11,347 nucleotides of DNA from a virus: UHGV virus genome UHGV-1347074. One strand, written 5' to 3'. Each line of letters starts with the position of its first letter. Position 1 is the first letter of the stretch. Below the pieces are notes generated by a model. It ran no database searches. It was given only the letters and a program-made list of their open reading frames with translations, and had not been told where the DNA came from. Below are positions 218 through 11,145 of the stretch, one piece after another. Made by a program: the position numbers and the translations under genes.

Positions 218-1393
218 ATGCTGCTATCTGACATCCAAATAAAAAGAGCAAAACCGAAGGACAAACCCTATACGCTTAACGATGGTATGGGACTATCACT
301 CCTCATCGACACAGCGGGCAGCAAAGGCTGGCGTTTCCGCTATCGCTTTGCAGGTAAGCCAAAGATGATTTCCTTTGGTGTATATGGCGATGTGTCGTTG
401 GCACAGGCACGTACCAAACGTGATGAAGCGCGTTCGATGTTGGCCAAAGGGATCAACCCAAGTGAAGCCAGAAAGGCAGATAAGATTGCTTTGCAGTTCG
501 CACATGAGAACAGCTTTGAGTCTGTGGCCAGAGAATGGCACTCATCGAAAAAAGCCACCTGGTCAGAGGGGTATGCAAAAGAGGTTCTCAATTGTATGGA
601 AAAGGATATTTTTCCTTTTATCGGCCAGCGCCCAATTGAGCAGATTGAACCACTAGAGCTGCTAACCGTCCTGCAAAAAATAGAGAAAAGAGGTGCGCTA
701 GAGCAAACCAGCAAGATCCGCCGCCGTTGTGGTGAAGTGCTTCGTTATGCTGTTGCCACTGGCAGAGCAAAGTATAATTTTGCACCCGATTTAGCTATCG
801 CACTCAACAAACCTAAAACTCAACACTTCCCGTTCCTGACTGAAAGCGAGTTGCCCGAGTTCGTCAATGCTCTGGATAACTATCAGGGCAGTTTAGTCAC
901 CAAATACGCCACGCAGCTGTTGATGCTAACAGGCGTGCGAACAATTGAACTACGTGCAGCGGAATGGGCTGAGTTTGATTTAGATAATGCCTTATGGGAG
1001 ATCCCCAAAGAACGGATGAAGAAACGCCGCCCCCATCTGGTTCCGTTATCTACTCAGGCGATCAGCATCCTGAAAAAGCTGCAAGAAATAACTGGGAATT
1101 ACAGCCTCGTTTTCCCTGGGCGAAACGACGTCAGGAAACCAATGAGCGAAGCCAGTATCAACAAAGTGATAAAGCTGCTTGGCTATCATGGTCGGTTAAC
1201 GGGTCACGGCTTCAGGCATACCATGAGTACTATTTTGCATGAACATGGTTTTGAAAGCGCCTGGATTGAAATGCAGCTTGCGCATGTTGATAAGAACTCT
1301 ATTAGAGGGACTTATAATCATGCGCAGTATTTAGAACCGAGAAGAAAAATGCTAACGTTTTATAGCAACCTTATATATAAATCATATATATGA
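218..1393 (+). CDS. int: Tyrosine site-specific integrase, P4 family (about 392 aa from the first ATG)
   Basis: N-terminus from the ATG at 218 (MLLSDIQIKRAKPKDKPYTLNDGMGLSLLIDTAGSKGWRFRY...) matches the conserved P4-type integrase N-terminal domain. C-terminal catalytic region has HGFRH ... LAHVDKNSIRGTYNHAQYLEPRR (box II and tyrosine). The ORF-track start at 170 is a TTG and was not used. Confidence 0.9.
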   Translation: MLLSDIQIKRAKPKDKPYTLNDGMGLSLLIDTAGSKGWRFRYRFAGKPKMISFGVYGDVSLAQARTKRDEARSMLAKGINPSEARKADKIALQFAHENSFESVAREWHSSKKATWSEGYAKEVLNCMEKDIFPFIGQRPIEQIEPLELLTVLQKIEKRGALEQTSKIRRRCGEVLRYAVATGRAKYNFAPDLAIALNKPKTQHFPFLTESELPEFVNALDNYQGSLVTKYATQLLMLTGVRTIELRAAEWAEFDLDNALWEIPKERMKKRRPHLVPLSTQAISILKKLQEITGNYSLVFPGRNDVRKPMSEASINKVIKLLGYHGRLTGHGFRHTMSTILHEHGFESAWIEMQLAHVDKNSIRGTYNHAQYLEPRRKMLTFYSNLIYKSYI

Positions 1394-2443
1394 TCTTTTT
1401 ATATCCGTTAAAATAGTATCTACATCGGTAAATGTTATGTTTATACAATCAATTAACTCAAATACTTGCTCTTCAATAAGAATAAAATCATTTTTTGGTC
1501 CAGTACTAATTTTTATACCAAGATCCCCAACTTTCTCCAATAAACTAACCTGATGATTTGTGTAAATATATTTTCCTCCGGGCTCTGTTATCTCTCTATT
1601 TGCAGAAAAAACAACATCAGCTATCGCATCAACTTTTAGCTTATACGAAGAAGAAACAGTAACATCACCTTTCTTCGAAAGTGGGAATATTAAACTATAC
1701 CATTTATATATATTCACCTTGTCTGGAGAAATAAACTTTCGTTTGTTTATTTCTGCATTCATATAATCTCTAAACATATTTAGATGTGAAATATGATTTG
1801 TTAGATTACTATTTTTTACGCCAGCTTTATAAGTCAACAACGCTATTCCAATACCACCAACGGTGGTGATCAATGTAATCAACCATGCTATTGACTGAAG
1901 GATAATTGATATGCCATTAAATCTACCAAAAAAGTAAGAAACACACTTATCTGATAGGCAAAATTCTTTCACATACAGTTTTTCATTATAGATCGTAATG
2001 CATAGTATGATGAGACAAGAAATGATACCAAGCATAAAAATAGCAAGGATAGTAATAACCAAGACTTTTAGCTCTTTTTCTTTCCCAAAATCCCCCAAAG
2101 GTAATTTATTAACCAAAGAACTAGTAATTTTATAAATATAAATAATAGTAGTTTTAATGCTCTTTATTAAAGCTGAAGGAGAATTAAGAACAAAGCAATA
2201 CAATGTATTAGCTAAAAATTTAACTCGTATAAAAATAAAGCTTCCTCTAATCTTTACCTTCCTATATTTTCTTTTTAGTTCAAATACTATTTTTCTACCT
2301 TCATCTGTCCCCAGAAGAACTAATCCAATATGTGATACTATATCCCTTAAGCTAACTCCCACCCCAATAAACGCCTTATGAAAAGATGACAAACTGCGTT
2401 TGAGAGATTCATAATTAGATTTTATTTCAGCTAAGCTACCCAT
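1382..2443 (-). CDS. Predicted two-transmembrane-helix membrane protein, candidate retron effector (353 aa)
   Basis: Two long hydrophobic segments (VLVITILAIFMLGIISCLIILCITIY and ISIILQSIAWLITLITTVGGIGIALLTY) separated by a short loop. Its ATG shares one base with the RT stop (TGATG on the - strand), indicating translational coupling. Very AT-rich, like the RT gene. Confidence 0.75.
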   Translation of the reverse strand: MGSLAEIKSNYESLKRSLSSFHKAFIGVGVSLRDIVSHIGLVLLGTDEGRKIVFELKRKYRKVKIRGSFIFIRVKFLANTLYCFVLNSPSALIKSIKTTIIYIYKITSSLVNKLPLGDFGKEKELKVLVITILAIFMLGIISCLIILCITIYNEKLYVKEFCLSDKCVSYFFGRFNGISIILQSIAWLITLITTVGGIGIALLTYKAGVKNSNLTNHISHLNMFRDYMNAEINKRKFISPDKVNIYKWYSLIFPLSKKGDVTVSSSYKLKVDAIADVVFSANREITEPGGKYIYTNHQVSLLEKVGDLGIKISTGPKNDFILIEEQVFELIDCINITFTDVDTILTDIKRSYI

Positions 2444-3639
2444 CAGTATTTAACCTTTTGAAGACGATCTCTGAATCCTTTTTCAATCAATAAAAAACCG
2501 GGAGTTCTTCTTAAAATAATAAGATTATATAGTGTAAGATCATATTTTTTCTTGTAATAATCTTTTTTAGAGTTCCCACCTTTATAGGAGTTCTCTAAAA
2601 ATTTAATAGCCCTATCAATTTTAACAATATCTCTTTTTGCTGCCTTAGGCTGAATATCTTTTAGTCTTAATGATAGCACCTTATATTTATTGTGATTAAG
2701 CCTACCTAATTTGTTCACGCGCCCAACACATCTATTATACTCTATCCTATAGGCTACACTTGTTATTGAGTTATTTTTCTTTGCCAGTTTTTCTAAATTA
2801 TGCACAGACGCTCGAATACGTCCGACCTCATCAGAAGGTAAGCGTGGTTCATTAAATGAGATTCGTAACCCATGTACTTTTAATGATTCAGTTGATATAT
2901 TGTGTACTTGAGTTTTATCTTCATTTATAGGTAAATCTTTACCAGCAAGCATATCTTTAATATGATCTAAAATCTGATTCATATTGTAGTTAACTAATTT
3001 TGATGAAACTGTAATATCATCTACCAGTCTCGTATAGACTAATTTCTTCCTTTCTGCTCTATTTACAATGTCAGATTCAACATCAAAAAGACATAACGAT
3101 GCTATATAACTAGAGGTCAAAGCGCCCTGAACAATAGTGTCGTCATAACAGCATATATCAGTTAAGTACTCTAATGCTTCGCCTTTAAATTTTAAAACCT
3201 TAGAAAATATACTATATACTATATCTCTATGAATATTATCAAAAAAATTTTTGATATCTACTTTAAGTATTGTTTTTGCATTACAGTGCTTACGGGCACA
3301 AGCGATATAATGCCGCTCAATTCCTTTTTTTTTCTCATCTTTATTGGTTGGAACTGAGCCATAAATGTAATCTGGCCATAATATCAGCTCTTTAAAGATC
3401 CTATTGTTTATCCTTTTTTGAATACGCCTTATTAGCTGGTGTGGATCATAAACATCTCTAAGTTCACCATTTATTTTTTTTACTTGCTTTTTCTTGTATC
3501 TTTGGTGGGAAGGCATTGCAATAGCAGTTTTTAAATCTGCTAACGTAATATCCAAGCAAGAACTTAAAGATTGCAAAGATCTGAGAGATTGTGCACCAGG
3601 TTTTTTTATAGGATTACGGGCAACCATAATATCTTCCAT
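2443..3639 (-). CDS. Reverse transcriptase, retron-type (398 aa)
   Basis: RT motifs readable in the translation: ILKVDIKNFFDNI (motif A aspartate), ICCYDDTIVQGALTSSYIASL (motif B), YTRLVDDITVSS (motif C) and a downstream KVHGLRIS at the position of the retron VTG motif. Overall pattern resembles Ec86-type retron RTs from memory. Confidence 0.85.
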   Translation of the reverse strand: MEDIMVARNPIKKPGAQSLRSLQSLSSCLDITLADLKTAIAMPSHQRYKKKQVKKINGELRDVYDPHQLIRRIQKRINNRIFKELILWPDYIYGSVPTNKDEKKKGIERHYIACARKHCNAKTILKVDIKNFFDNIHRDIVYSIFSKVLKFKGEALEYLTDICCYDDTIVQGALTSSYIASLCLFDVESDIVNRAERKKLVYTRLVDDITVSSKLVNYNMNQILDHIKDMLAGKDLPINEDKTQVHNISTESLKVHGLRISFNEPRLPSDEVGRIRASVHNLEKLAKKNNSITSVAYRIEYNRCVGRVNKLGRLNHNKYKVLSLRLKDIQPKAAKRDIVKIDRAIKFLENSYKGGNSKKDYYKKKYDLTLYNLIILRRTPGFLLIEKGFRDRLQKVKY

Positions 3640-3960
3640 TCCATGAAATCAAAATTACATCCGGCCTCCCTCATACTCAAGTGGGCAAAAGAATAGGGTT
3701 GCTTTCGTCAAAAGCCCTTAGCAACTGCCCCTATTCTTTGACCGGACGCAATTGAGGACGGCTACAGCCCCATCGTTGCCGGCCAGGCTTTGTGGGGGTT
3801 CCGTTCCAGCCTATGCTACTGCATAGGCGCTCTCACTTTTCTGTTGCGAGAGCGGAAGCTAAGAAACTATAAACTTTGACTGCCACAGGCAAACGGAACG
3901 TTTGCGCGAAGCAGATATTACCATTGATGTTTCTAGTTTCAAGACTTAACTAGCATTTTT
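3640..3960 (-). ncRNA. Candidate retron non-coding RNA (msr/msd) upstream of the RT; boundaries approximate
   Basis: No ORF of 60 aa or more on either strand. Cluster of stable hairpins: 11-bp stem 3688-3698/3729-3739; 8-bp stem with tetraloop 3809-3816/3821-3828; 7-bp stem 3828-3834/3848-3854; 7-bp stem with GAA triloop 3889-3895/3899-3905. G+C is higher than in the adjacent RT gene. The a1/a2 inverted repeats could not be located. Confidence 0.35.
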
Positions 3961-4299
3961 CACATCACCTACCAAAATTGTAATGGACTGACCAAAAAGG
4001 CACTACACCGCACCCGCCTGCGGTTTTCATATCACTAAAATTTTTCAGTTGTGATTTTTTACAAACGATACCGCCAGCCCGCGCCCGTGCTGGGGATACA
4101 CTGCGAGGCAGGAACTGAAAAGAATGAAAAGAAATTCAGCTTTTTTCAGTTTTACTGTCCGTAGTATCTATGGCCTGAATACGCAACTCTATGATATTAA
4201 ATGGATAATTATTTTTAGGTGTGTGATTTTATGAAGTTTTGGAAACATGAAAAACATAACAAATTGAAAAATAATAATTTTATGTCCGTATAAACTGAA

Positions 4300-4340
4300 A
4301 TCCGGTGTTCAGGTTCCGGGAATGGATCGGCCATTCCCGA
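4300..4340 (-). terminator. Candidate transcription terminator downstream of the Ogr/Delta gene
   Basis: 9-bp perfect hairpin cgggaatgg/ccattcccg (4316-4340) just 3' of the stop at 4349 on the - strand, followed by a moderately U-rich stretch (AUUUCAGUUUAUA). The U-tract is not immediately adjacent, so this is a weak call. Confidence 0.3.
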
Positions 4341-4348
4341 CGCATACT

Positions 4349-4621
4349 TTACCCATTCTTTTGCGCAGCCAGCAGCAACTTTAAAGCCTTTTCCCGTTCC
4401 TCGGGTGGAATTGCATCAATTAGCTCTTTAACCCTCCCCTGCCCGTTCAGCGCGCTTGGACTAACGGAATGGGAGAAAGCAACATTCATCACAAACGAGT
4501 GACCGCACTCCACATTAGAGCAATAGCAGTACACATCGTACAGTTGTGGGTGTTTCCTGTTTGTTTTACCTATCCGCGCTACTGCCTGACATGTGGGGCA
4601 GTACATTCTCATCATCTTCAT
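4349..4621 (-). CDS. Ogr/Delta-family zinc-finger late-gene transcriptional activator (single-domain, about 85-90 aa)
   Basis: C-x2-C-x22-C-x4-C spacing (MYCPTCQ ... YCSNVECGHSF) as in P2 Ogr / P4 Delta. The start is ambiguous among several in-frame ATGs (4621 to 4606); homology favours MYCPTCQ. Confidence 0.85.
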   Translation of the reverse strand: MKMMRMYCPTCQAVARIGKTNRKHPQLYDVYCYCSNVECGHSFVMNVAFSHSVSPSALNGQGRVKELIDAIPPEEREKALKLLLAAQKNG

Positions 4622-4687
4622 CGTTCTGTGCCCTATACTGTTGCCCGCCAGAAGAAGGGATTTGACTCCCTACCTCTTGTTCTGAAC

Positions 4688-4880
4688 GTGTAACACTGGT
4701 AACACGTGTAACGCTATTGATTTAAAAGGATTTAATCTGTTACCAGTTAGCAAAATCAAGAGGTAACGCGTGGTAACACACCATTTTTTGTTACCTCTGT
4801 TACCAGTCAGTATTTTTGACTGGTAACACTGAAGAACCGTATCAGTAGCGGGTGTTACCTCTGTTACCAGTGTTACCTCA
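4688..4880. repeat. Iteron cluster, candidate replication origin (P4 ori/crr-like) for the adjacent primase-helicase
   Basis: At least 12 copies of GGTAAC(A/G)C / its complement TGTTACC in both orientations. An 18-bp direct repeat TGTTACCTCTGTTACCAG occurs at 4789-4806 and 4853-4870. An 11-bp perfect inverted repeat lies at 4799-4809 / 4817-4827. No ORF spans the region. Confidence 0.6.
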
Positions 4881-4903
4881 TATAAATAAGACTCACGCGA
4901 TAA

Positions 4904-7591
4904 TTACTCAGGTTCGGCGCTTCCCAGTACCTGTGTATTGAACTGGTACACACGTTTAAGCCCTATTTCTGGCAGGCGAATGCTGTTTTGCGTCCGGCCA
5001 TCTTCACCGGGTTTCAGCCAGCCCGCGTCCACACACAACCTGGCCACCTTACGCGAATCAAATCCCTTACAGATCTCCTTCCAGCCTGACGGGAGAACGT
5101 AGAACGTCACAACCGGCTCTGTCACGTTGTCTCCTTTATCGACTTTTCTGAATCCCATCATTGAAACAGGCCGGTTCCTGTCGTCATTCCAGTCAGCAAA
5201 CCGACTGAACTGATTACGCGTCATGAAGTCCCGTACCTGTTCAAGTGCCGCTTTATCTTCCTGATTAGCTGTATGGCCCCGGTCAGCCATCCATGCAGCC
5301 AGACAACTTTGAGCGGCACGAAAGGCCTCTCCCTCCGGCCATCCTGTGATGCCCGCTTTTGTGGCCAGCTCCCCGGCCATAGCAACCAGAGCAAAACGGG
5401 TAACAGCCCGGCCAACCTGATTCCCGGCATTTTCCGGCGTCAGCCTCCGGGTGTACTCTTTCAATAAGGCTTTCGCCTGGCTGGTCAGTTCCGGCAGATC
5501 AGCGGTCAGGCAATGCAGCCAGTCGCGGAATGGTGCACCATGATAATGCGCTACATGCTGCTCAAGATGCTCAGCCAGGGTTTTCCCGCTACTGAAGCCA
5601 TGAAGTTCTTCAAACACGCCATACTTGCCCGAATCGCTTGGGATCTGGATCATTCTGACCTCAACCCCGGCATACGTACGTTCCCCGGCGCTTGCCGCAT
5701 GTTCTACCAGTGACAGTTCCCCGGTGGACAGAAACAACAGATTCCAGCGGTTGGTTTCCCTTACAGAACCATCTGTTCTGGCTCTGGCTTTGCCCTGCCC
5801 GTTAGCCAGCATATAAGCGATATTCCCCGCCTCCCTGCCGTCAACCTCCCGGATTTCATCCAGCATCAGCGTGGCATCATTGCGGCGGCTCGCCGTTCCT
5901 TCTAAGGCATTCCCCGTCGCCCGCCACGTATGCCAGAAATCTGTTCCACCACATACTGATGCAGCCACTTTCATCGTCGTGGTTTTGCCGTCCGTCGATT
6001 CCCCTTTGAGGTGATAACCTCCACCGCCGATACCAACCAGTTTCAGAAGGGGGGCAGCAAATGCCAGGCTCACCGCAAAGGCCAGACGGGCATTCTTTAT
6101 GCAGTAACGGCCAAGATTTTCACGCCATTCCTCTGATGTACCGCTGACACGAAAATCACGCCCCTGCACGCTCGATGTTTGTAAGATGACTGACTGGGCT
6201 TCGCGCCCTATCACTTCATCCTGGAGAACGTAAACCCCGCCGTGCCAGCCCGTTTTATTTACACAGGTAACTTTTCTGTCCGGTTTACACAGCGAGATAT
6301 ATTCCATCAGGAATGCTCTGGCCATACCGTTAATGTTGATGTAAGAAAGCCCGTTAACCAGCAGAACGCGGCGCAGTTCTTCCCCGCTGCCACCCAGCAT
6401 CTCCATCGGCATTGCCCATTTACGGCTGTTTCCGTTGGTATCTTCCCATTCCAGCAAACGCCCGTAATTACTCCCATCAGCATCACTGGTGATTGCCGTC
6501 ACCCGCAACGGGCTGCAAATTTTGATATTGCGTATCTCCGTATCACCATCAGACTTATTAACCAGCTTGTCGTACCACAAATATTCTTTTGTCAGCCGGA
6601 ACCCTTCTGGTAAACGGGTCTGCCCTTTGCCATGCAGCGTCATTTCTTCACGAAAGGCATCTCTCGCCCGTTCTTTCCCCACTTCCTGCCGATAGTCATC
6701 CCAGTCAGCCTTATGGCGTACCGGAGGGAGCGTTACCCAGCCATCCACCGCTTTGGCGGCTTTCTCTGCCTGAATACGCCCGGTGTTTTCTTTCCCGTCA
6801 GCCAGATCATTATCTCCGGCCAGAATGATCCGGGTTTCCGGCCAGCGTTTTCGGATCTGCTCCGTCACCTTCAGTAAATTGGTGGCAGCGACAGCCGCCA
6901 CGATCCATCCTTCAGTCAGCAGACTGACGGTAAGCGCCGTGGCAAAACCCTCAGTGATAATCACCTGTTCAGGTGTTTCAGCGGGTATATCGGTCAGGGC
7001 AATGAATGCGCCAGACAGCTGGCTACCGGGCAGCAGACTTTTATCCCCGTCAGGATTGATAAGCTGACCACCGGTAATATTCCCGGAAATATCCGTCAAC
7101 GGCAGCAGTAATGAACCGGAGGAAAATGTTATTCCGGCCAGATTCAAAGGTTGTGACAGCAAGGGAAGTGAATACCCGTGTAAGCCCTTGTTTGTCAGAT
7201 AGACCGGCTCACCATTGCAGGACTGCTGTCTGAGTCTGGTATATCGCTCCGCACCCGCTTCTTTTCCTGTGGCCTTTTTCCTAGCGGGCAAAGCGGGCTT
7301 CTCCTGTATTTCTGGTAATGCAAGCGCCTCAGATACCATCCCGGCGGCTTCTTTTATCTTTCTTCCTGTCACCAGACGAACCAGATCAAGACCATCGCCA
7401 TGACCGCACTGATTACAAAACCACGTCCCACGCCCCGCTTTATCGTCCAGTCGAAAGCGATCTTTGCCACCACAGGCAGGGCAAGCCCCATGATGTCCTG
7501 CGGACGGTACTTTGATACCTAATGCTGACAGGATATAAGGCCAGCGCCCAATCGCAGCCCCGGAAATAGTGGATACAGACAGTGTTTTCAC
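4904..7591 (-). CDS. Alpha-type DNA primase-helicase (895 aa): zinc-binding domain + TOPRIM primase + P-loop helicase
   Basis: N-terminal CPACGGKDRFR ... WFCNQCGHGDG zinc-binding motif; TOPRIM-like ITEGFATA ... ILAGDND; Walker A GESTDGKT. GTG start at 7591 preceded by AGGAGG (7-nt spacer) and overlapping the upstream gene's stop (GTGA). Confidence 0.9.
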   Translation of the reverse strand: MKTLSVSTISGAAIGRWPYILSALGIKVPSAGHHGACPACGGKDRFRLDDKAGRGTWFCNQCGHGDGLDLVRLVTGRKIKEAAGMVSEALALPEIQEKPALPARKKATGKEAGAERYTRLRQQSCNGEPVYLTNKGLHGYSLPLLSQPLNLAGITFSSGSLLLPLTDISGNITGGQLINPDGDKSLLPGSQLSGAFIALTDIPAETPEQVIITEGFATALTVSLLTEGWIVAAVAATNLLKVTEQIRKRWPETRIILAGDNDLADGKENTGRIQAEKAAKAVDGWVTLPPVRHKADWDDYRQEVGKERARDAFREEMTLHGKGQTRLPEGFRLTKEYLWYDKLVNKSDGDTEIRNIKICSPLRVTAITSDADGSNYGRLLEWEDTNGNSRKWAMPMEMLGGSGEELRRVLLVNGLSYININGMARAFLMEYISLCKPDRKVTCVNKTGWHGGVYVLQDEVIGREAQSVILQTSSVQGRDFRVSGTSEEWRENLGRYCIKNARLAFAVSLAFAAPLLKLVGIGGGGYHLKGESTDGKTTTMKVAASVCGGTDFWHTWRATGNALEGTASRRNDATLMLDEIREVDGREAGNIAYMLANGQGKARARTDGSVRETNRWNLLFLSTGELSLVEHAASAGERTYAGVEVRMIQIPSDSGKYGVFEELHGFSSGKTLAEHLEQHVAHYHGAPFRDWLHCLTADLPELTSQAKALLKEYTRRLTPENAGNQVGRAVTRFALVAMAGELATKAGITGWPEGEAFRAAQSCLAAWMADRGHTANQEDKAALEQVRDFMTRNQFSRFADWNDDRNRPVSMMGFRKVDKGDNVTEPVVTFYVLPSGWKEICKGFDSRKVARLCVDAGWLKPGEDGRTQNSIRLPEIGLKRVYQFNTQVLGSAEPE

Positions 7592-7998: not shown

Positions 7999-8227
7999 CG
8001 CGCATCTCTCCCTTAATTGTGCTGGTTTCCTTAACAACGCCATCAAGTTGTTCGGCAATACAGGCCACTAAAGCCGCAGCGCCTTCCGCTGAAACAGTTC
8101 TCGCTCCATTCACTGTGGGAACGGACAGGACCTCTGCAAGAAACTCACTGGCCAGTGCCGCCCGTAACAGACGACTCTCACCCAGTTCGCTCAATATGCA
8201 GCCTTGCTTAAAATTCATGGATTTCAT
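7991..8227 (-). CDS. Hypothetical small protein (78 aa)
   Basis: ATG at 8227 preceded by GGAGGTG with a 5-nt spacer; overlaps the upstream gene stop (ATGA) and the downstream gene start. No recognisable motif. Confidence 0.6.
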   Translation of the reverse strand: MKSMNFKQGCILSELGESRLLRAALASEFLAEVLSVPTVNGARTVSAEGAAALVACIAEQLDGVVKETSTIKGEMRDE

Positions 8228-8427
8228 GCAACCACCTCCCCGGCACTTTTCACAGGGATGTGGGCAGCAAAGCTCAGGATAAATTCAGTGGCAAGTTTAA
8301 GGCGTGCAGCATGCTCGCAGTCTGCGATTACACGCACAGGACGTGGACGGGCATCACGGTCTGTACGGCGAACAGCCAGAAAGACAAAGATAAATTCAGG
8401 GTGAGATAAAGCAGGGACTGTAGCCAT
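8224..8427 (-). CDS. Hypothetical small protein (67 aa), first ORF of the replication operon (positionally analogous to P4 kil, function unknown)
   Basis: ATG at 8427 preceded by GGAGG with an 8-nt spacer. The ORF track extends this frame to 8814 (196 aa), but that extension crosses a repeat- and hairpin-rich leader and looks non-coding. Confidence 0.5.
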   Translation of the reverse strand: MATVPALSHPEFIFVFLAVRRTDRDARPRPVRVIADCEHAARLKLATEFILSFAAHIPVKSAGEVVA

Positions 8428-8429
8428 AA

Positions 8430-8725
8430 TGGCAACCTCCGTTAGATAGCGGGTAACGCTACCACCGGAGTTCCTACGCTCATGGGTGGTAGCCCAGACG
8501 GGGGTAGGAATACCGGCTCTAACGGATACCGGCCAGCCCGAAAGCTGCCCCGCCTGGACTACCATAATTCTGATGATGTGGCGTAAAAAATAAAAACATG
8601 CAGTCAGCCACCACACCATAAATTTTAGGTGAGTCAAAGCTACGACACAAAAAAACACGCCTGGCGCGTGTTGTGTCGCCGTTAGATTACACGGGTTCCT
8701 ACGCCCGGCTGCCGATTTTGCGGCA
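8430..8725 (-). ncRNA. Candidate structured leader / immunity RNA region (P4 CI-RNA-like; Rfam C4-type), boundaries approximate
   Basis: Direct repeats CCGTTAGAT...GTTCCTACGC at 8439-8479 and 8679-8708. An internal segment (8499-8516, containing GTAGGAA) is largely complementary to both copies. Strong hairpins at 8458-8466/8485-8493 and 8643-8678. Confidence 0.3.
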
Positions 8726-8733
8726 ACCTTTAA

Positions 8734-8763
8734 ACTATATCCCGCGCATTCCTGGTGAGGCAA
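8734..8763 (-). promoter_or_regulatory. Candidate sigma70 promoter for the leader and replication operon
   Basis: On the - strand, TTGCCT (-35; + strand 8758-8763), an 18-bp spacer, then TATAGT (-10; + strand 8734-8739). Predicted start near 8726, just upstream of the first repeat copy. Confidence 0.3.
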
Positions 8764-8866
8764 GAAATTTATAACCGAAAACTGAACATTGCCTGGATTA
8801 ATTAACGCTGGCATGCTTAAGCCTCTGCTTAAAAATAGTTCTTCATTTTTCCTGATGCTGTAAACG

Positions 8867-8901: not shown

Positions 8902-9906
8902 TCAATCAGCAAACGTCAGGGCGCTCTCATCAACAGCCGCGTACAGTTCAGGTTCACCGAGTGCATAGCCTTCATTGCGCAGGTAGGAATGTACGTATTC
9001 ACTGTTTTCATCATCAAACTCAGCACGAAACCACCGTGTTATCGCCTGAGTGTAAATATGCAGATTATTCAGCGTCGTTACTGCCAGACGCTTACCCGGC
9101 ATAAACGGGGGAATAAACGCAAAGCGGCCAGCAACAGAACTTGTAGCCATCTGTGCAGCATTCACATCAGCCGGGCGGTCTGCGGCATTAAATAACTTCA
9201 GGCGTTGATGTGCTGCCAGCTCTGCCCCAACCAGAACAACCAGACGGGGATCTTCACGAAACTGCTCAGCAATAAGCTCAGTAATCAGATGGTTGGCCAT
9301 CGCATCAATATTTTTCCAGGTGCCAGTCTCTCCCAGCGTGACAGGCTCAGAGATGATTTGCTTTCCGTTCCCGTAGGCTTTCGCCAGTGCATGCCAGCCA
9401 ATATTGACATCCTCGCCTTTTTTATTGATTTCCGGGTTTGTAGTATTTGCAATCGACACACCATTGAAACCGACCCGCAGCATGTCCAGCGCATATGCCT
9501 GGGCAAAAAAGCTCTCAACCGTTTTCTCAAACCCATCCGGCACGCCGGTATGGTAAATATGAGACATATCGGAATAGCTGATCCGGGCGCAGGTATCCGT
9601 CTCTGTCAGAAAGAACTCCGTACCATTGATTGCCATTTTTTTGTGGAAACGGCCACCATCCACACGTCCGGTATGCAGTTCACTGGCACCAATATTGACT
9701 GCATTACCTGACACGGCGTTAACATCACGTAGCGTGATATTTTTAATAAGCCACCCGGATTCCAGAATTGACGTACGCAGTATATTTTCAGTGGGTTCGC
9801 TTAATGCAAAGCGTCTTTTTGATTCCTCCTGATAGTTAGTGCCAGTAACGAATTTATTATGATAACGACGTGCTGCGTCCGGCCTTTCAGTTTTGAAGGC
9901 ATACAT
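8902..9906 (-). CDS. P2 GpN-like major capsid protein homolog (334 aa)
   Basis: Several blocks align by eye with P2 gpN as recalled from memory: GFNGV, DV.(I/V)GW, EDPRLVVLVGAELAA (vs EDPDLVVIVGRQLLA) and TTLNNLHIY (vs TKLENLSIY). ATG at 9906 preceded by GGTGA. Confidence 0.7.
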   Translation of the reverse strand: MYAFKTERPDAARRYHNKFVTGTNYQEESKRRFALSEPTENILRTSILESGWLIKNITLRDVNAVSGNAVNIGASELHTGRVDGGRFHKKMAINGTEFFLTETDTCARISYSDMSHIYHTGVPDGFEKTVESFFAQAYALDMLRVGFNGVSIANTTNPEINKKGEDVNIGWHALAKAYGNGKQIISEPVTLGETGTWKNIDAMANHLITELIAEQFREDPRLVVLVGAELAAHQRLKLFNAADRPADVNAAQMATSSVAGRFAFIPPFMPGKRLAVTTLNNLHIYTQAITRWFRAEFDDENSEYVHSYLRNEGYALGEPELYAAVDESALTFAD

Positions 9907-9929: not shown

Positions 9930-10790
9930 TTAAGAAAAGATTTTATTTTTGTACTCAGTAACCCGATTGTATTTCATTACATGCTCAACATAATCCCGGT
10001 CACTTACGACTGAACGTAATACATAATTATCTGCTCGATAGTACTCCCTGTAAGCCATAGCTCTTGCCATTCCACCGTTATTTAATACATAACGATCAGT
10101 TGGAACGCTACAACGGCTAATAATTTCATTCACGGAATCAGACAAAGATTTGAGTGCGTCTGTAATAAATTTAATATCACGGACAACGTCACCGTCATTA
10201 AATACAGAAATAAAATCAGCAGGGATCTGGCCGGATTGAGGAAATATGTTCAGTAAACGCTTCTCGACTCCCTTACCAATGTAGTTCACTTCATCGGCCA
10301 GTACGCCCGGTAAAAGCTTGATCGTGCTCAGTCGGCTATGTTGCTCATTCAGCCGGGAAACAGCCAGATGGTAACACCGTTCAGCATCCGCTCGTTCAGC
10401 ATGCCCCGTTTTATTCGTTTTGGCTTCAGCAATGCTACTGACGCCGTTTTTTGAGAATGTGCTTTTCCATGCAACTTCCGCATTTGTCACTTCACGCTGC
10501 CGGAAAGATAACTCTTCCTCTTCCTGACGACACAACTGGGCATAACGGCTTAGGAGCAGGTTGATCTCATTCGCCACAGCTTCCGTATCAGGTACTGTTA
10601 ACCCCGTAAGTGAATACAGCTTTTCACCTTTAGCACGCAGCTTATTCAGTGAATAGATTTCGATAATACGCACAATACAGGCTGTGTCGCTATGAGTTTC
10701 TTTAAATGGTCTTACTTTGTAACTATCTAACACCGACACATGTTCGTTCTTAATTGATGCCAATTTTTTCTTAAAAACATTGTCAACCAT
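9930..10790 (-). CDS. Hypothetical protein (286 aa), immediately upstream of and co-oriented with the capsid homolog
   Basis: ATG at 10790 preceded by GAGGTG; 23-nt gap to the capsid gene. Lower G+C than the flanking capsid and primase genes. No motif recognised; not similar by eye to P2 gpO. Confidence 0.8.
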   Translation of the reverse strand: MVDNVFKKKLASIKNEHVSVLDSYKVRPFKETHSDTACIVRIIEIYSLNKLRAKGEKLYSLTGLTVPDTEAVANEINLLLSRYAQLCRQEEEELSFRQREVTNAEVAWKSTFSKNGVSSIAEAKTNKTGHAERADAERCYHLAVSRLNEQHSRLSTIKLLPGVLADEVNYIGKGVEKRLLNIFPQSGQIPADFISVFNDGDVVRDIKFITDALKSLSDSVNEIISRCSVPTDRYVLNNGGMARAMAYREYYRADNYVLRSVVSDRDYVEHVMKYNRVTEYKNKIFS

Positions 10791-10807: not shown

Positions 10808-11035
10808 TTAGGAGTTTAATTTTCTATTGAGAATATTCTTCTCTATCCATTCATTAACTTCATGCTCCACCCATGCAACAGAACGAGAACCGATAGAAAC
10901 TTGGTTCGGAAATTCATCATTCTTTATCTTTAGATAAATTGTTGACTTGGGTAAGCCAGTCAAATTAATCACTTCTGATATTCTCAGAAGTCTATATCTT
11001 TTTTGGGGTGCGTTTTCCCGAGGCAATAAGCTCAT
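10808..11035 (-). CDS. alpA: AlpA-family prophage regulatory protein (HTH; excisionase/transcriptional regulator-like), about 75 aa
   Basis: Pattern RLLRISEVINLTGLPKSTIY ... FP ... G.RSVAWVEHEVNEWI matches the AlpA family. ATG at 11035 preceded by GAAGGA; the ORF-track start at 11050 is a GTG five codons upstream. Confidence 0.8.
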   Translation of the reverse strand: MSLLPRENAPQKRYRLLRISEVINLTGLPKSTIYLKIKNDEFPNQVSIGSRSVAWVEHEVNEWIEKNILNRKLNS

Positions 11036-11145
11036 GGCTATGTCCTTCACATTAGATATTTATACTAAGACTTAATTAGTCTCTATTGGGTGTATATATA
11101 CTTGCACAGAAGAATTAATACGTAAAGAATGACACTTTCAAACTT

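Follow-up and report, generated by a model that had tools for sequence, protein, structure and literature searches.

The window, i.e. the whole stretch of 11,347 bp analysed here, corresponds to an integrative element of E. coli that resembles phage satellites. At its integrase end, the attachment site is marked by the 3' portion of a tRNA gene (positions 1-54), with which the window begins; in a relative of 98.8% identity, the element was found at tRNA-Arg and adjoined yfdC. The integrase gene lies on the plus strand (170-1393) and all other genes described here on the minus strand. Next to the integrase comes a type IV retron pair (1382-3639; RT_IV, E = 4e-182; 2TM_IV, E = 2e-87), then an Ogr/Delta gene (4349-4621) and a gene coding for an 895-aa primase-helicase (4904-7591), hereafter called PriRep, in which Zn_Ribbon_Prim and Toprim_3 domains are fused to a DUF927 domain. 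The remaining part carries an Ash/Icd-like ORF (8224-8814), a P2-family major capsid gene (8902-9906; Pfam E = 9e-67), an ORF of 286 aa upstream of the capsid gene (9930-10790), which gave neither a Pfam nor a PHROG match and possibly encodes a scaffold, and an AlpA gene (10808-11050). Two RNAs recognised by Rfam are contained in the Ash/Icd-like ORF, on the same strand: a C4 antisense RNA (8482-8569, 81 bits) and isrK (8650-8727, 72 bits). They are immunity RNAs of the P4 CI/seqA type, and 14 of 16 positions are complementary between the segments CAGCCGGGCGUAGGAA of isrK and UUCCUACCCCCGUCUG of C4. Searches of the window for psu and sid, for partition or small-terminase genes, and for the P2/P4 cos sequence (up to three mismatches) gave no match.

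The interval between the integrase and ogr genes is a variable defence hotspot, since a near-identical element (L001) carried DUF4435 and AAA ATPase genes at the very place where the window has its retron. Upstream of the reverse transcriptase gene (interval 3640-4349), an AT-rich stretch of 700 bp, where GC content falls as low as 0.22, is a possible location of the retron non-coding RNA; an Rfam search of this stretch gave no match.

The element is widespread in its host. Of 5,426 complete E. coli genomes, 447 contained the 321 bp around the array described below with 95-99% identity, and two others contained them with 80-90% identity (449 in total), every copy being chromosomal, and no similarity to this region was found in phage records. 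The element was likewise absent from the reference Gram-negative PICIs, none of which was integrated at tRNA-Arg. A Salmonella "plasmid" record of 6,989 bp encoding a 99% identical protein was considered as evidence for an episome and rejected, the record being a linear contig. Our literature search found no description of the replication origin of this satellite family.

Anatomy of the iteron array

Between the stop codon of the primase-helicase gene and the start of the Ogr/Delta gene lies an array of short repeats (4688-4880), located there by the original prediction, which had also taken it to be non-coding; indeed, no ORF of at least 50 aa crossed positions 4694-4903. The prediction of twelve or more GGTAAC-type units in both orientations could be sharpened to exactly 12 units with a GTAAC core. 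Six of these cores lie on the plus strand (4690, 4699, 4708, 4763, 4773 and 4823) and six on the minus strand (4739, 4790, 4799, 4854, 4863 and 4872). Ten of the 12 units read GGTAAC, the two others (4690 and 4708) displaying the variant TGTAAC, and the overall consensus was WGGTAACAS. Such a density is far from random: the word GGTAACRC occurred nine times in the window, six of them within 4698-4877, for an expectation of 0.36 derived from shuffled sequences, and GGTAAC occurred 15 times (ten within 4698-4877) for 3.85 expected; none of 200 shuffles reached the observed number for either word. A weight-matrix scan of the whole window did not reveal a second iteron cluster.

The first iteron is located 27 nt past the stop codon of the primase-helicase gene, and the 12 sites form two mirror-image sets of six. 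Reading the plus strand from the ogr side, their order is three plus, one minus and two plus, followed by two minus, one plus and three minus. The ogr-proximal set begins with an outer triple of plus-strand iterons at 9-bp spacing (4689-4713), composed of TGTAACA (4689-4695), GGTAACA (4698-4704) and TGTAACG (4707-4713). It is followed by an AT-rich spacer, TATTGATTTAAAAGGATTTAATC (4714-4737), then by a single TGTTACC iteron on the minus strand (4738-4744), opposed to its neighbours, and by an inner pair on the plus strand (4762-4778), made of GGTAACG (4762-4768) and GGTAACA (4772-4778). The dyad centre (4779-4788, centred at 4783) carries the short A/T tract CACCATTTTT and then a T. On its other side, an inner TGTTACC pair on the minus strand (4789-4804; units at 4789-4795 and 4798-4804) mirrors the pair at 4762-4778, a single plus-strand GGTAACA (4822-4828) mirrors the iteron at 4738-4744, and a helicase-proximal outer triple of minus-strand TGTTACC (4853-4877; units at 4853-4859, 4862-4868 and 4871-4877) completes the array, again at 9-bp spacing.

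The centres of mirrored sites average at position 4783, one pair being 1 nt off, and lie about 9, 18, 42, 73, 82 and 91 bp on either side of it. This symmetry concerns the sites themselves, since comparison of the two arms showed identity at 34 of 42 iteron bases versus 20 of 55 spacer bases; the array is a palindrome of binding sites and not a sequence palindrome. Two further repeats had been announced and both turned out slightly longer. What had been given as an "18-bp direct repeat" proved to be a perfect repeat of 19 nt, TGTTACCTCTGTTACCAGT, with copies at 4789-4807 and 4853-4871, and the "11-bp inverted repeat" to have perfect arms of 12 nt (4798-4809 and 4817-4828, the latter including the single iteron at 4822-4828) separated by a 7-nt loop. 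The corresponding hairpin was examined as a possible conserved structure and rejected: relatives kept only the iteron parts of its arms, so that it is best regarded as a by-product of two inverted iterons.

The least stable 20-mer of the region falls within the spacer at 4714-4737, which across relatives displayed a mean AT content of 0.76 versus 0.46 for its mirror spacer and is a candidate unwinding element. This spacer is off-centre, and its stability is moderately low and not extreme for the window (-19.6 kcal/mol per 20-mer, the least stable 1% of the window starting at -18.8). The dyad centre itself offers only an A/T tract of about 10 bp, the classical large AT-rich region being absent. 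Neither a DnaA box nor an IHF consensus was found in the array, and neither an intrinsic terminator nor a sigma-70 promoter was predicted inside it.

Two non-iteron boxes flank the array. The first, TCTTAT in gene orientation (4886-4891, minus strand), precedes the first iteron by 9-10 nt and was invariant in 44 distinct arrays belonging to five iteron classes. The second, TTCTGGCGGGC / TtttTCTGGCnGGC (4643-4653, minus strand), lies about 25 nt past the last iteron; it was present in all iteron classes, including elements devoid of ogr, and may be located outside the origin proper. In sequence, it is similar to the 5' stem half of the CI-like C4 RNA of the element and also to a motif near P4 ori (9464-9474 in L002).

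Conservation of the array and switching of its iterons

Loci encoding relatives of PriRep (50-93% identity) were collected from contigs representing one genome per species. Among these 55 loci, 52 displayed a usable gene end, and in 47 of them the 200 bp following the stop codon contained 6-13 exact copies of a single hexamer, arranged in the positional pattern of the window. The original prediction had counted on conservation of the repeats in related elements, and this was borne out: these 47 of the 52 loci, from many genera of Enterobacterales, displayed the same 12-site grammar about 27 nt past the helicase stop codon, and three others (L037, L044 and L057) carried the array 1.15 kb downstream with its grammar unchanged. 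Here the array lies behind an inserted recombinase-like gene, which was read in L037 (6664-8050) as an ORF of 335 aa resembling tyrosine recombinases. The displaced array was composed of GTGGGAACA iterons and had moved as a unit together with its pre-box, which there reads TATTAT. As for the other loci, the contig of L036 ended too early to show the array, and L056, a truncated match, had none.

Conservation was concentrated in the iterons. Class A (GGTAACA) comprised 24 distinct arrays, with protein identities as low as about 61%; in these arrays, the majority-base fraction reached 0.94 in iterons versus 0.62 in spacers (Mann-Whitney p = 3e-24). Likewise, the window and a Pectobacterium element (L022) differed at four of 84 iteron bases versus 53 of 104 spacer bases.

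The iteron word, on the other hand, was found to vary between lineages versus the constant grammar. At least seven cores were recorded, i.e. GGTAACA, GGTGTAACA, GGTGGAACA, GGATACA, a mixture of GGTTACA and GGTGACA, a CATGTA type and GTGGGAACA. The clearest exchange was observed between the Pectobacterium element L022 and a Brenneria element (L009), whose arrays could be aligned site by site, all 12 sites having passed from GGTAACA to GGATACA. Their proteins differed at 56 residues, of which 37 belonged to the fast-evolving primase domain, four to residues 331-689, none to residues 690-794 and 15 to the last 100 residues. Positions that changed recurrently upon such switches (846, 850, 861-871, 878 and 880) fell in the predicted second (recognition) helix and the wing strands of the C-terminal domain described below. 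Among protein pairs with cores at least 97% identical, C-terminal identity was 0.99 within the same iteron class and 0.91 between different classes, a difference confounded by general divergence, as primase identity also dropped, and more so in B/C pairs. Taken together, these comparisons are suggestive of an iteron class that tracks the C-terminal domain of the helicase. A simple code relating residues of the winged helix to bases was considered and rejected: position 880 is R or K in classes A-C and W or F elsewhere, and does not track the core cleanly.

Three genomes harbouring two elements were sampled (Pantoea stewartii, Pantoea leporis and Enterobacter intestinihominis). In all three, iteron classes differed between the two copies, with classes C/B, B/A and A/C for the pairs L026/L053, L042/L043 and L004/L050, respectively. 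At n = 3 this is not significant, and it fits avoidance of cross-talk between co-resident replicons.

A more distant, PICI-like TOPRIM-DUF927 element of E. coli (L060, NZ_CP148430.1; 33% identity) was deposited as a circular molecule, or plasmid, of 12,152 bp. Its helicase stop codon is followed by three copies of GTTGGTTCA, an AT-rich spacer of 43 bp and three inverted copies, and this 3+3 arrangement is the textbook Rep-ori layout. It also displayed, 1.9 kb away, a second cluster in which this hexamer occurs seven times (the two clusters being located at 6540-6650 and 8408-8549), which recalls the P4 pair of ori and crr.

The primase-helicase and related replicons

The 895-aa protein displayed three Pfam domains (Zn_Ribbon_Prim, Toprim_3 and DUF927, the latter with E = 4e-91). 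The original prediction had called its gene an alpha gene, by reference to satellite P4. This holds for the primase module only: in a BLASTP comparison, resemblance to P4 alpha (39% identity, 325 aligned residues, E = 3e-50) was confined to residues 1-317, and the helicase/initiator part belongs to a different family, DUF927. The D5_N, DUF5906 and Pox_D5 domains, which are present both in P4 alpha and in the Pri protein of the Gram-negative PICI EcCICFT073, were absent from PriRep, and no similarity was detectable between PriRep and EcCICFT073 Pri. Among proteins of solved structure, the only sequence relatives were SaPIbov1 Rep (8TCH; phmmer E = 3e-12) and SCCmec Cch (5DGK). Judged by its domains and similarities, the replicase is a mosaic in which a P4-type primase is fused to an initiator-helicase of the SaPI-Rep/Cch DUF927 type.

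In the full-length AlphaFold2 model, the helicase core was of low quality (pLDDT below 50 for residues 517-689) and structural interpretation was therefore limited to a C-terminal model. In this model of residues 690-895 (pLDDT 86), four long helices precede a beta-beta-helix-helix-beta-beta unit, and Foldseek matched it to both 8TCH and 5DGK with a probability of 1.0 over about 200 columns; the winged-helix protein TcpK was matched as well. Residues 795-895 (encoded by 4907-5209, minus strand) are predicted to form a winged-helix DNA-binding domain, with a helix at 846-855 and wing strands at 869-873 and 877-884, and this domain is proposed to be the iteron reader. By homology and prediction, PriRep is thus an AAA+ helicase of the Rep/Cch (DUF927) family ending in a winged helix, and a putative self-loading enzyme.

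In staphylococcal pathogenicity islands, Rep proteins recognise iterons of 5-6 bp through a winged helix in their C-terminal domain and self-load, probably as two hexamers; the iterons, 6-12 in number, lie directly 3' of rep in two halves of opposed orientation, separated by an AT-rich region (PMC9371898). The same Rep-ori layout was reported for Gram-negative PICIs, where pri of EcCICFT073 together with its 3' region constitutes a replicon in plasmid maintenance assays, the region 3' of pri being the ori (PMC6092414).

The window shares much with the SaPI systems. The DUF927 initiator family is common to PriRep and to the proteins of SaPIbov1 (Rep, 8TCH), SaPI1 (Rep1) and SaPI5 (PriRep5), the C-terminal architecture of helical bundle plus winged helix is the same according to the model, and in both cases short iterons in opposed halves lie directly 3' of the initiator gene. 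PriRep5 even provides a precedent for the fusion of a primase to the helicase (PMC9371898). Differences are the Gram-negative host of the window element, its primase module with a Zn-ribbon and Toprim of the P4-alpha/DnaG kind, its 12 sites, which are the maximum for SaPIs, in a fixed 3-1-2/2-1-3 grammar, and a centre that lacks a large AT-rich block, the spacer richest in AT being off-centre. Moreover, identity between the C-terminal domains of PriRep and SaPI Rep is just 12-15%.

EcCICFT073 resembles the window in gene content (int, alpA, an Icd-like gene and a capsid gene), in size (about 11 kb) and in the position of its ori directly 3' of the primase/initiator gene. This ori (7011-7236 of L058, E. 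coli CFT073) is composed of 11 sites of eight bp, GGTAGAYA/TRTCTACC, in mirror sets spread over about 225 bp. Yet, iteron polarity toward the centre is opposite to that of the window, the sites are grouped differently, Pri is built from D5_N, DUF5906 and Pox_D5, and the window has in addition a P4-type Ogr/Delta gene and the C4/isrK immunity RNAs.

P4 and the window element share a homologous N-terminal Zn-ribbon + Toprim primase with identical Pfam domains, an iteron cluster directly after the gene (crr in P4), a satellite lifestyle, a delta/ogr gene, an alpA/vis-like gene and a CI-type RNA. By contrast, the P4 helicase and origin-binding modules are D5_N/DUF5906/Pox_D5 instead of DUF927, P4 possesses both ori and crr, 4.5 kb apart, instead of one cluster, its crr is made of two 120-bp direct repeats instead of 12 dyad-symmetric sites, and its type II repeats are absent in the window. 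The analogy with P4 ori/crr contained in the original prediction is consequently partial: the position corresponds to that of crr, whereas there is neither a P4-like ori nor a two-site organisation. Similarly, the "different iteron sequence" is not identical to the P4 type I iteron TGTTCACC, but TGTTACC, one base shorter, is not very different from it either. In initiator modules, iteron word and two-site layout, which define the alpha ori/crr system, the window departs from P4 on all these sequence comparisons, the primase being the exception.

As the initiator part is DUF927, the SaPI/PICI Rep-ori, and not P4 alpha-ori, provides the right model. A Rep-ori can be defined by 6-12 short (5-8 bp) opposed iterons, at least two per side, directly 3' of an initiator-helicase gene; the window array displays 12 iterons of 7-9 bp in precisely this position and arrangement and, by such testable sequence criteria, it belongs to this kind. 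Examples of this kind had been described before in satellites of staphylococci and enterobacteria, and the window array most likely adds a new member.

Probable replication origin and alternative roles

Our results indicate that the region at 4688-4880 is very probably the replication origin, of Rep-ori type, of this P4/PICI-like integrative satellite. The original prediction of an origin is supported comparatively by the position and grammar conserved in about 50 relatives, by the concerted switching of iterons and by the SaPI-Rep-type C-terminal winged helix of the protein. Specific binding of the protein and autonomous replication find indirect support in this switching, accompanied by changes in the C-terminal domain, and in the circular 12-kb record of L060. 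Replication might proceed as follows. After induction, the element would produce the 895-aa primase-helicase, whose C-terminal winged-helix domains would bind the twelve WGGTAACAS iterons, the two mirror sets of six placing a pair of self-loading DUF927 hexamers so that they face opposite ways. An A/T-rich segment would then melt, i.e. the spacer at 4714-4737 and/or the tract at the dyad centre, the placement of the melting site being uncertain; the fused Toprim primase would prime and the host polymerase would copy the excised circle bidirectionally. Twelve sites for two hexamers make an appealing match. Still, a picture of one iteron per subunit is speculative because a single ring could not reach six sites spanning some 90 bp of straight DNA, which would need to be bent or wrapped.

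An extended version of this proposal is tentative and, in our opinion, rather doubtful. It sees the array as a strictly ordered double-hexamer platform with six iterons per ring and one per winged-helix domain, assembled with wrapping or bending of DNA, in which the 3-1-2/2-1-3 grammar stayed fixed and the iteron word and the reader wing were switched together at least seven times. If true, mutually orthogonal replicon specificities would result, and several satellites could co-reside without cross-talk.

Another role for the array would be that of an auxiliary cis element akin to crr, to which the initiator would bind and on which replication or its control (looping, handcuffing or copy number) would depend, with synthesis starting elsewhere. 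P4 crr, located like the array directly 3' of the primase-helicase gene, illustrates that an iteron cluster in this position can be auxiliary and not a start site; plasmid iteron clusters often act in copy control too, and the second same-hexamer cluster of the distant relative L060, 1.9 kb off, goes in the same direction. Yet, the single cluster left by the weight-matrix scan of the window, the lack of the 120-bp direct-repeat structure typical of crr and the Rep/DUF927-type initiator, whose known origins sit at this very position (PMC9371898), make this role improbable.

A main function as operator or enhancer of the Ogr/Delta late-activator gene, bound by AlpA, Ogr or a helper-phage protein, is suggested by the location of the array directly upstream of ogr. 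Since no strong sigma-70 promoter was predicted for this gene, an activator-dependent promoter is plausible, and one match to the Ogr/Delta-type activator site TGT-N12-ACA overlaps the array edge (4678-4695). This match was nevertheless rejected as a site, occurring at chance frequency and not being kept in relatives. About half of the loci share the layout of the window (alpA, capsid, ash, helicase, array and ogr, with int on the opposite strand), and in the remaining ones int lies upstream and no ogr gene downstream, yet the same array is retained after the helicase gene, which disfavours a main role as ogr operator. On this comparison of layouts, the array is linked to the helicase gene and not to ogr; as the iteron class moreover shifts together with the helicase C-terminus, we consider the operator role highly improbable.

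Least probable of all is a non-replicative site for packaging, partition or recombination (a pac/cos accessory, a centromere-like site or integrase arm sites), such sites being likewise made of short repeated motifs and P4 having its attP arm repeats near crr, because the window displays no partition or small-terminase gene and no P2-type cos match, its att end with the tRNA fragment and int is 3.3-4.7 kb away, and the array travels with the helicase gene among different integrases and layouts.

With the array read as a Rep-ori, the origin can be regarded with high confidence as pinned for a very common satellite family of E. coli and other Enterobacterales, one that carries defence cargo such as the type IV retron of the window, and its replicase as a mosaic of a P4-type primase and a SaPI-Rep-type initiator-helicase. 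The relatives provide a natural series of arrays with identical grammar and different iterons, in which proteins may differ almost only in their last 100 residues. The pair formed by L022 and L009 is a ready system for studying how origin specificity is encoded and evolves in self-loading (MCM-like) helicases, and the series as a whole could serve for the construction of small orthogonal replicons.

Iteron ends of the form TGT...ACC, possibly by coincidence, are common to P4 (TGTTCACC), EcCICFT073 (TGTCTACC) and the window family (TGTTACC, TGTTACACC and, in class C, TGTTCCACC), and hence span two unrelated initiator families.
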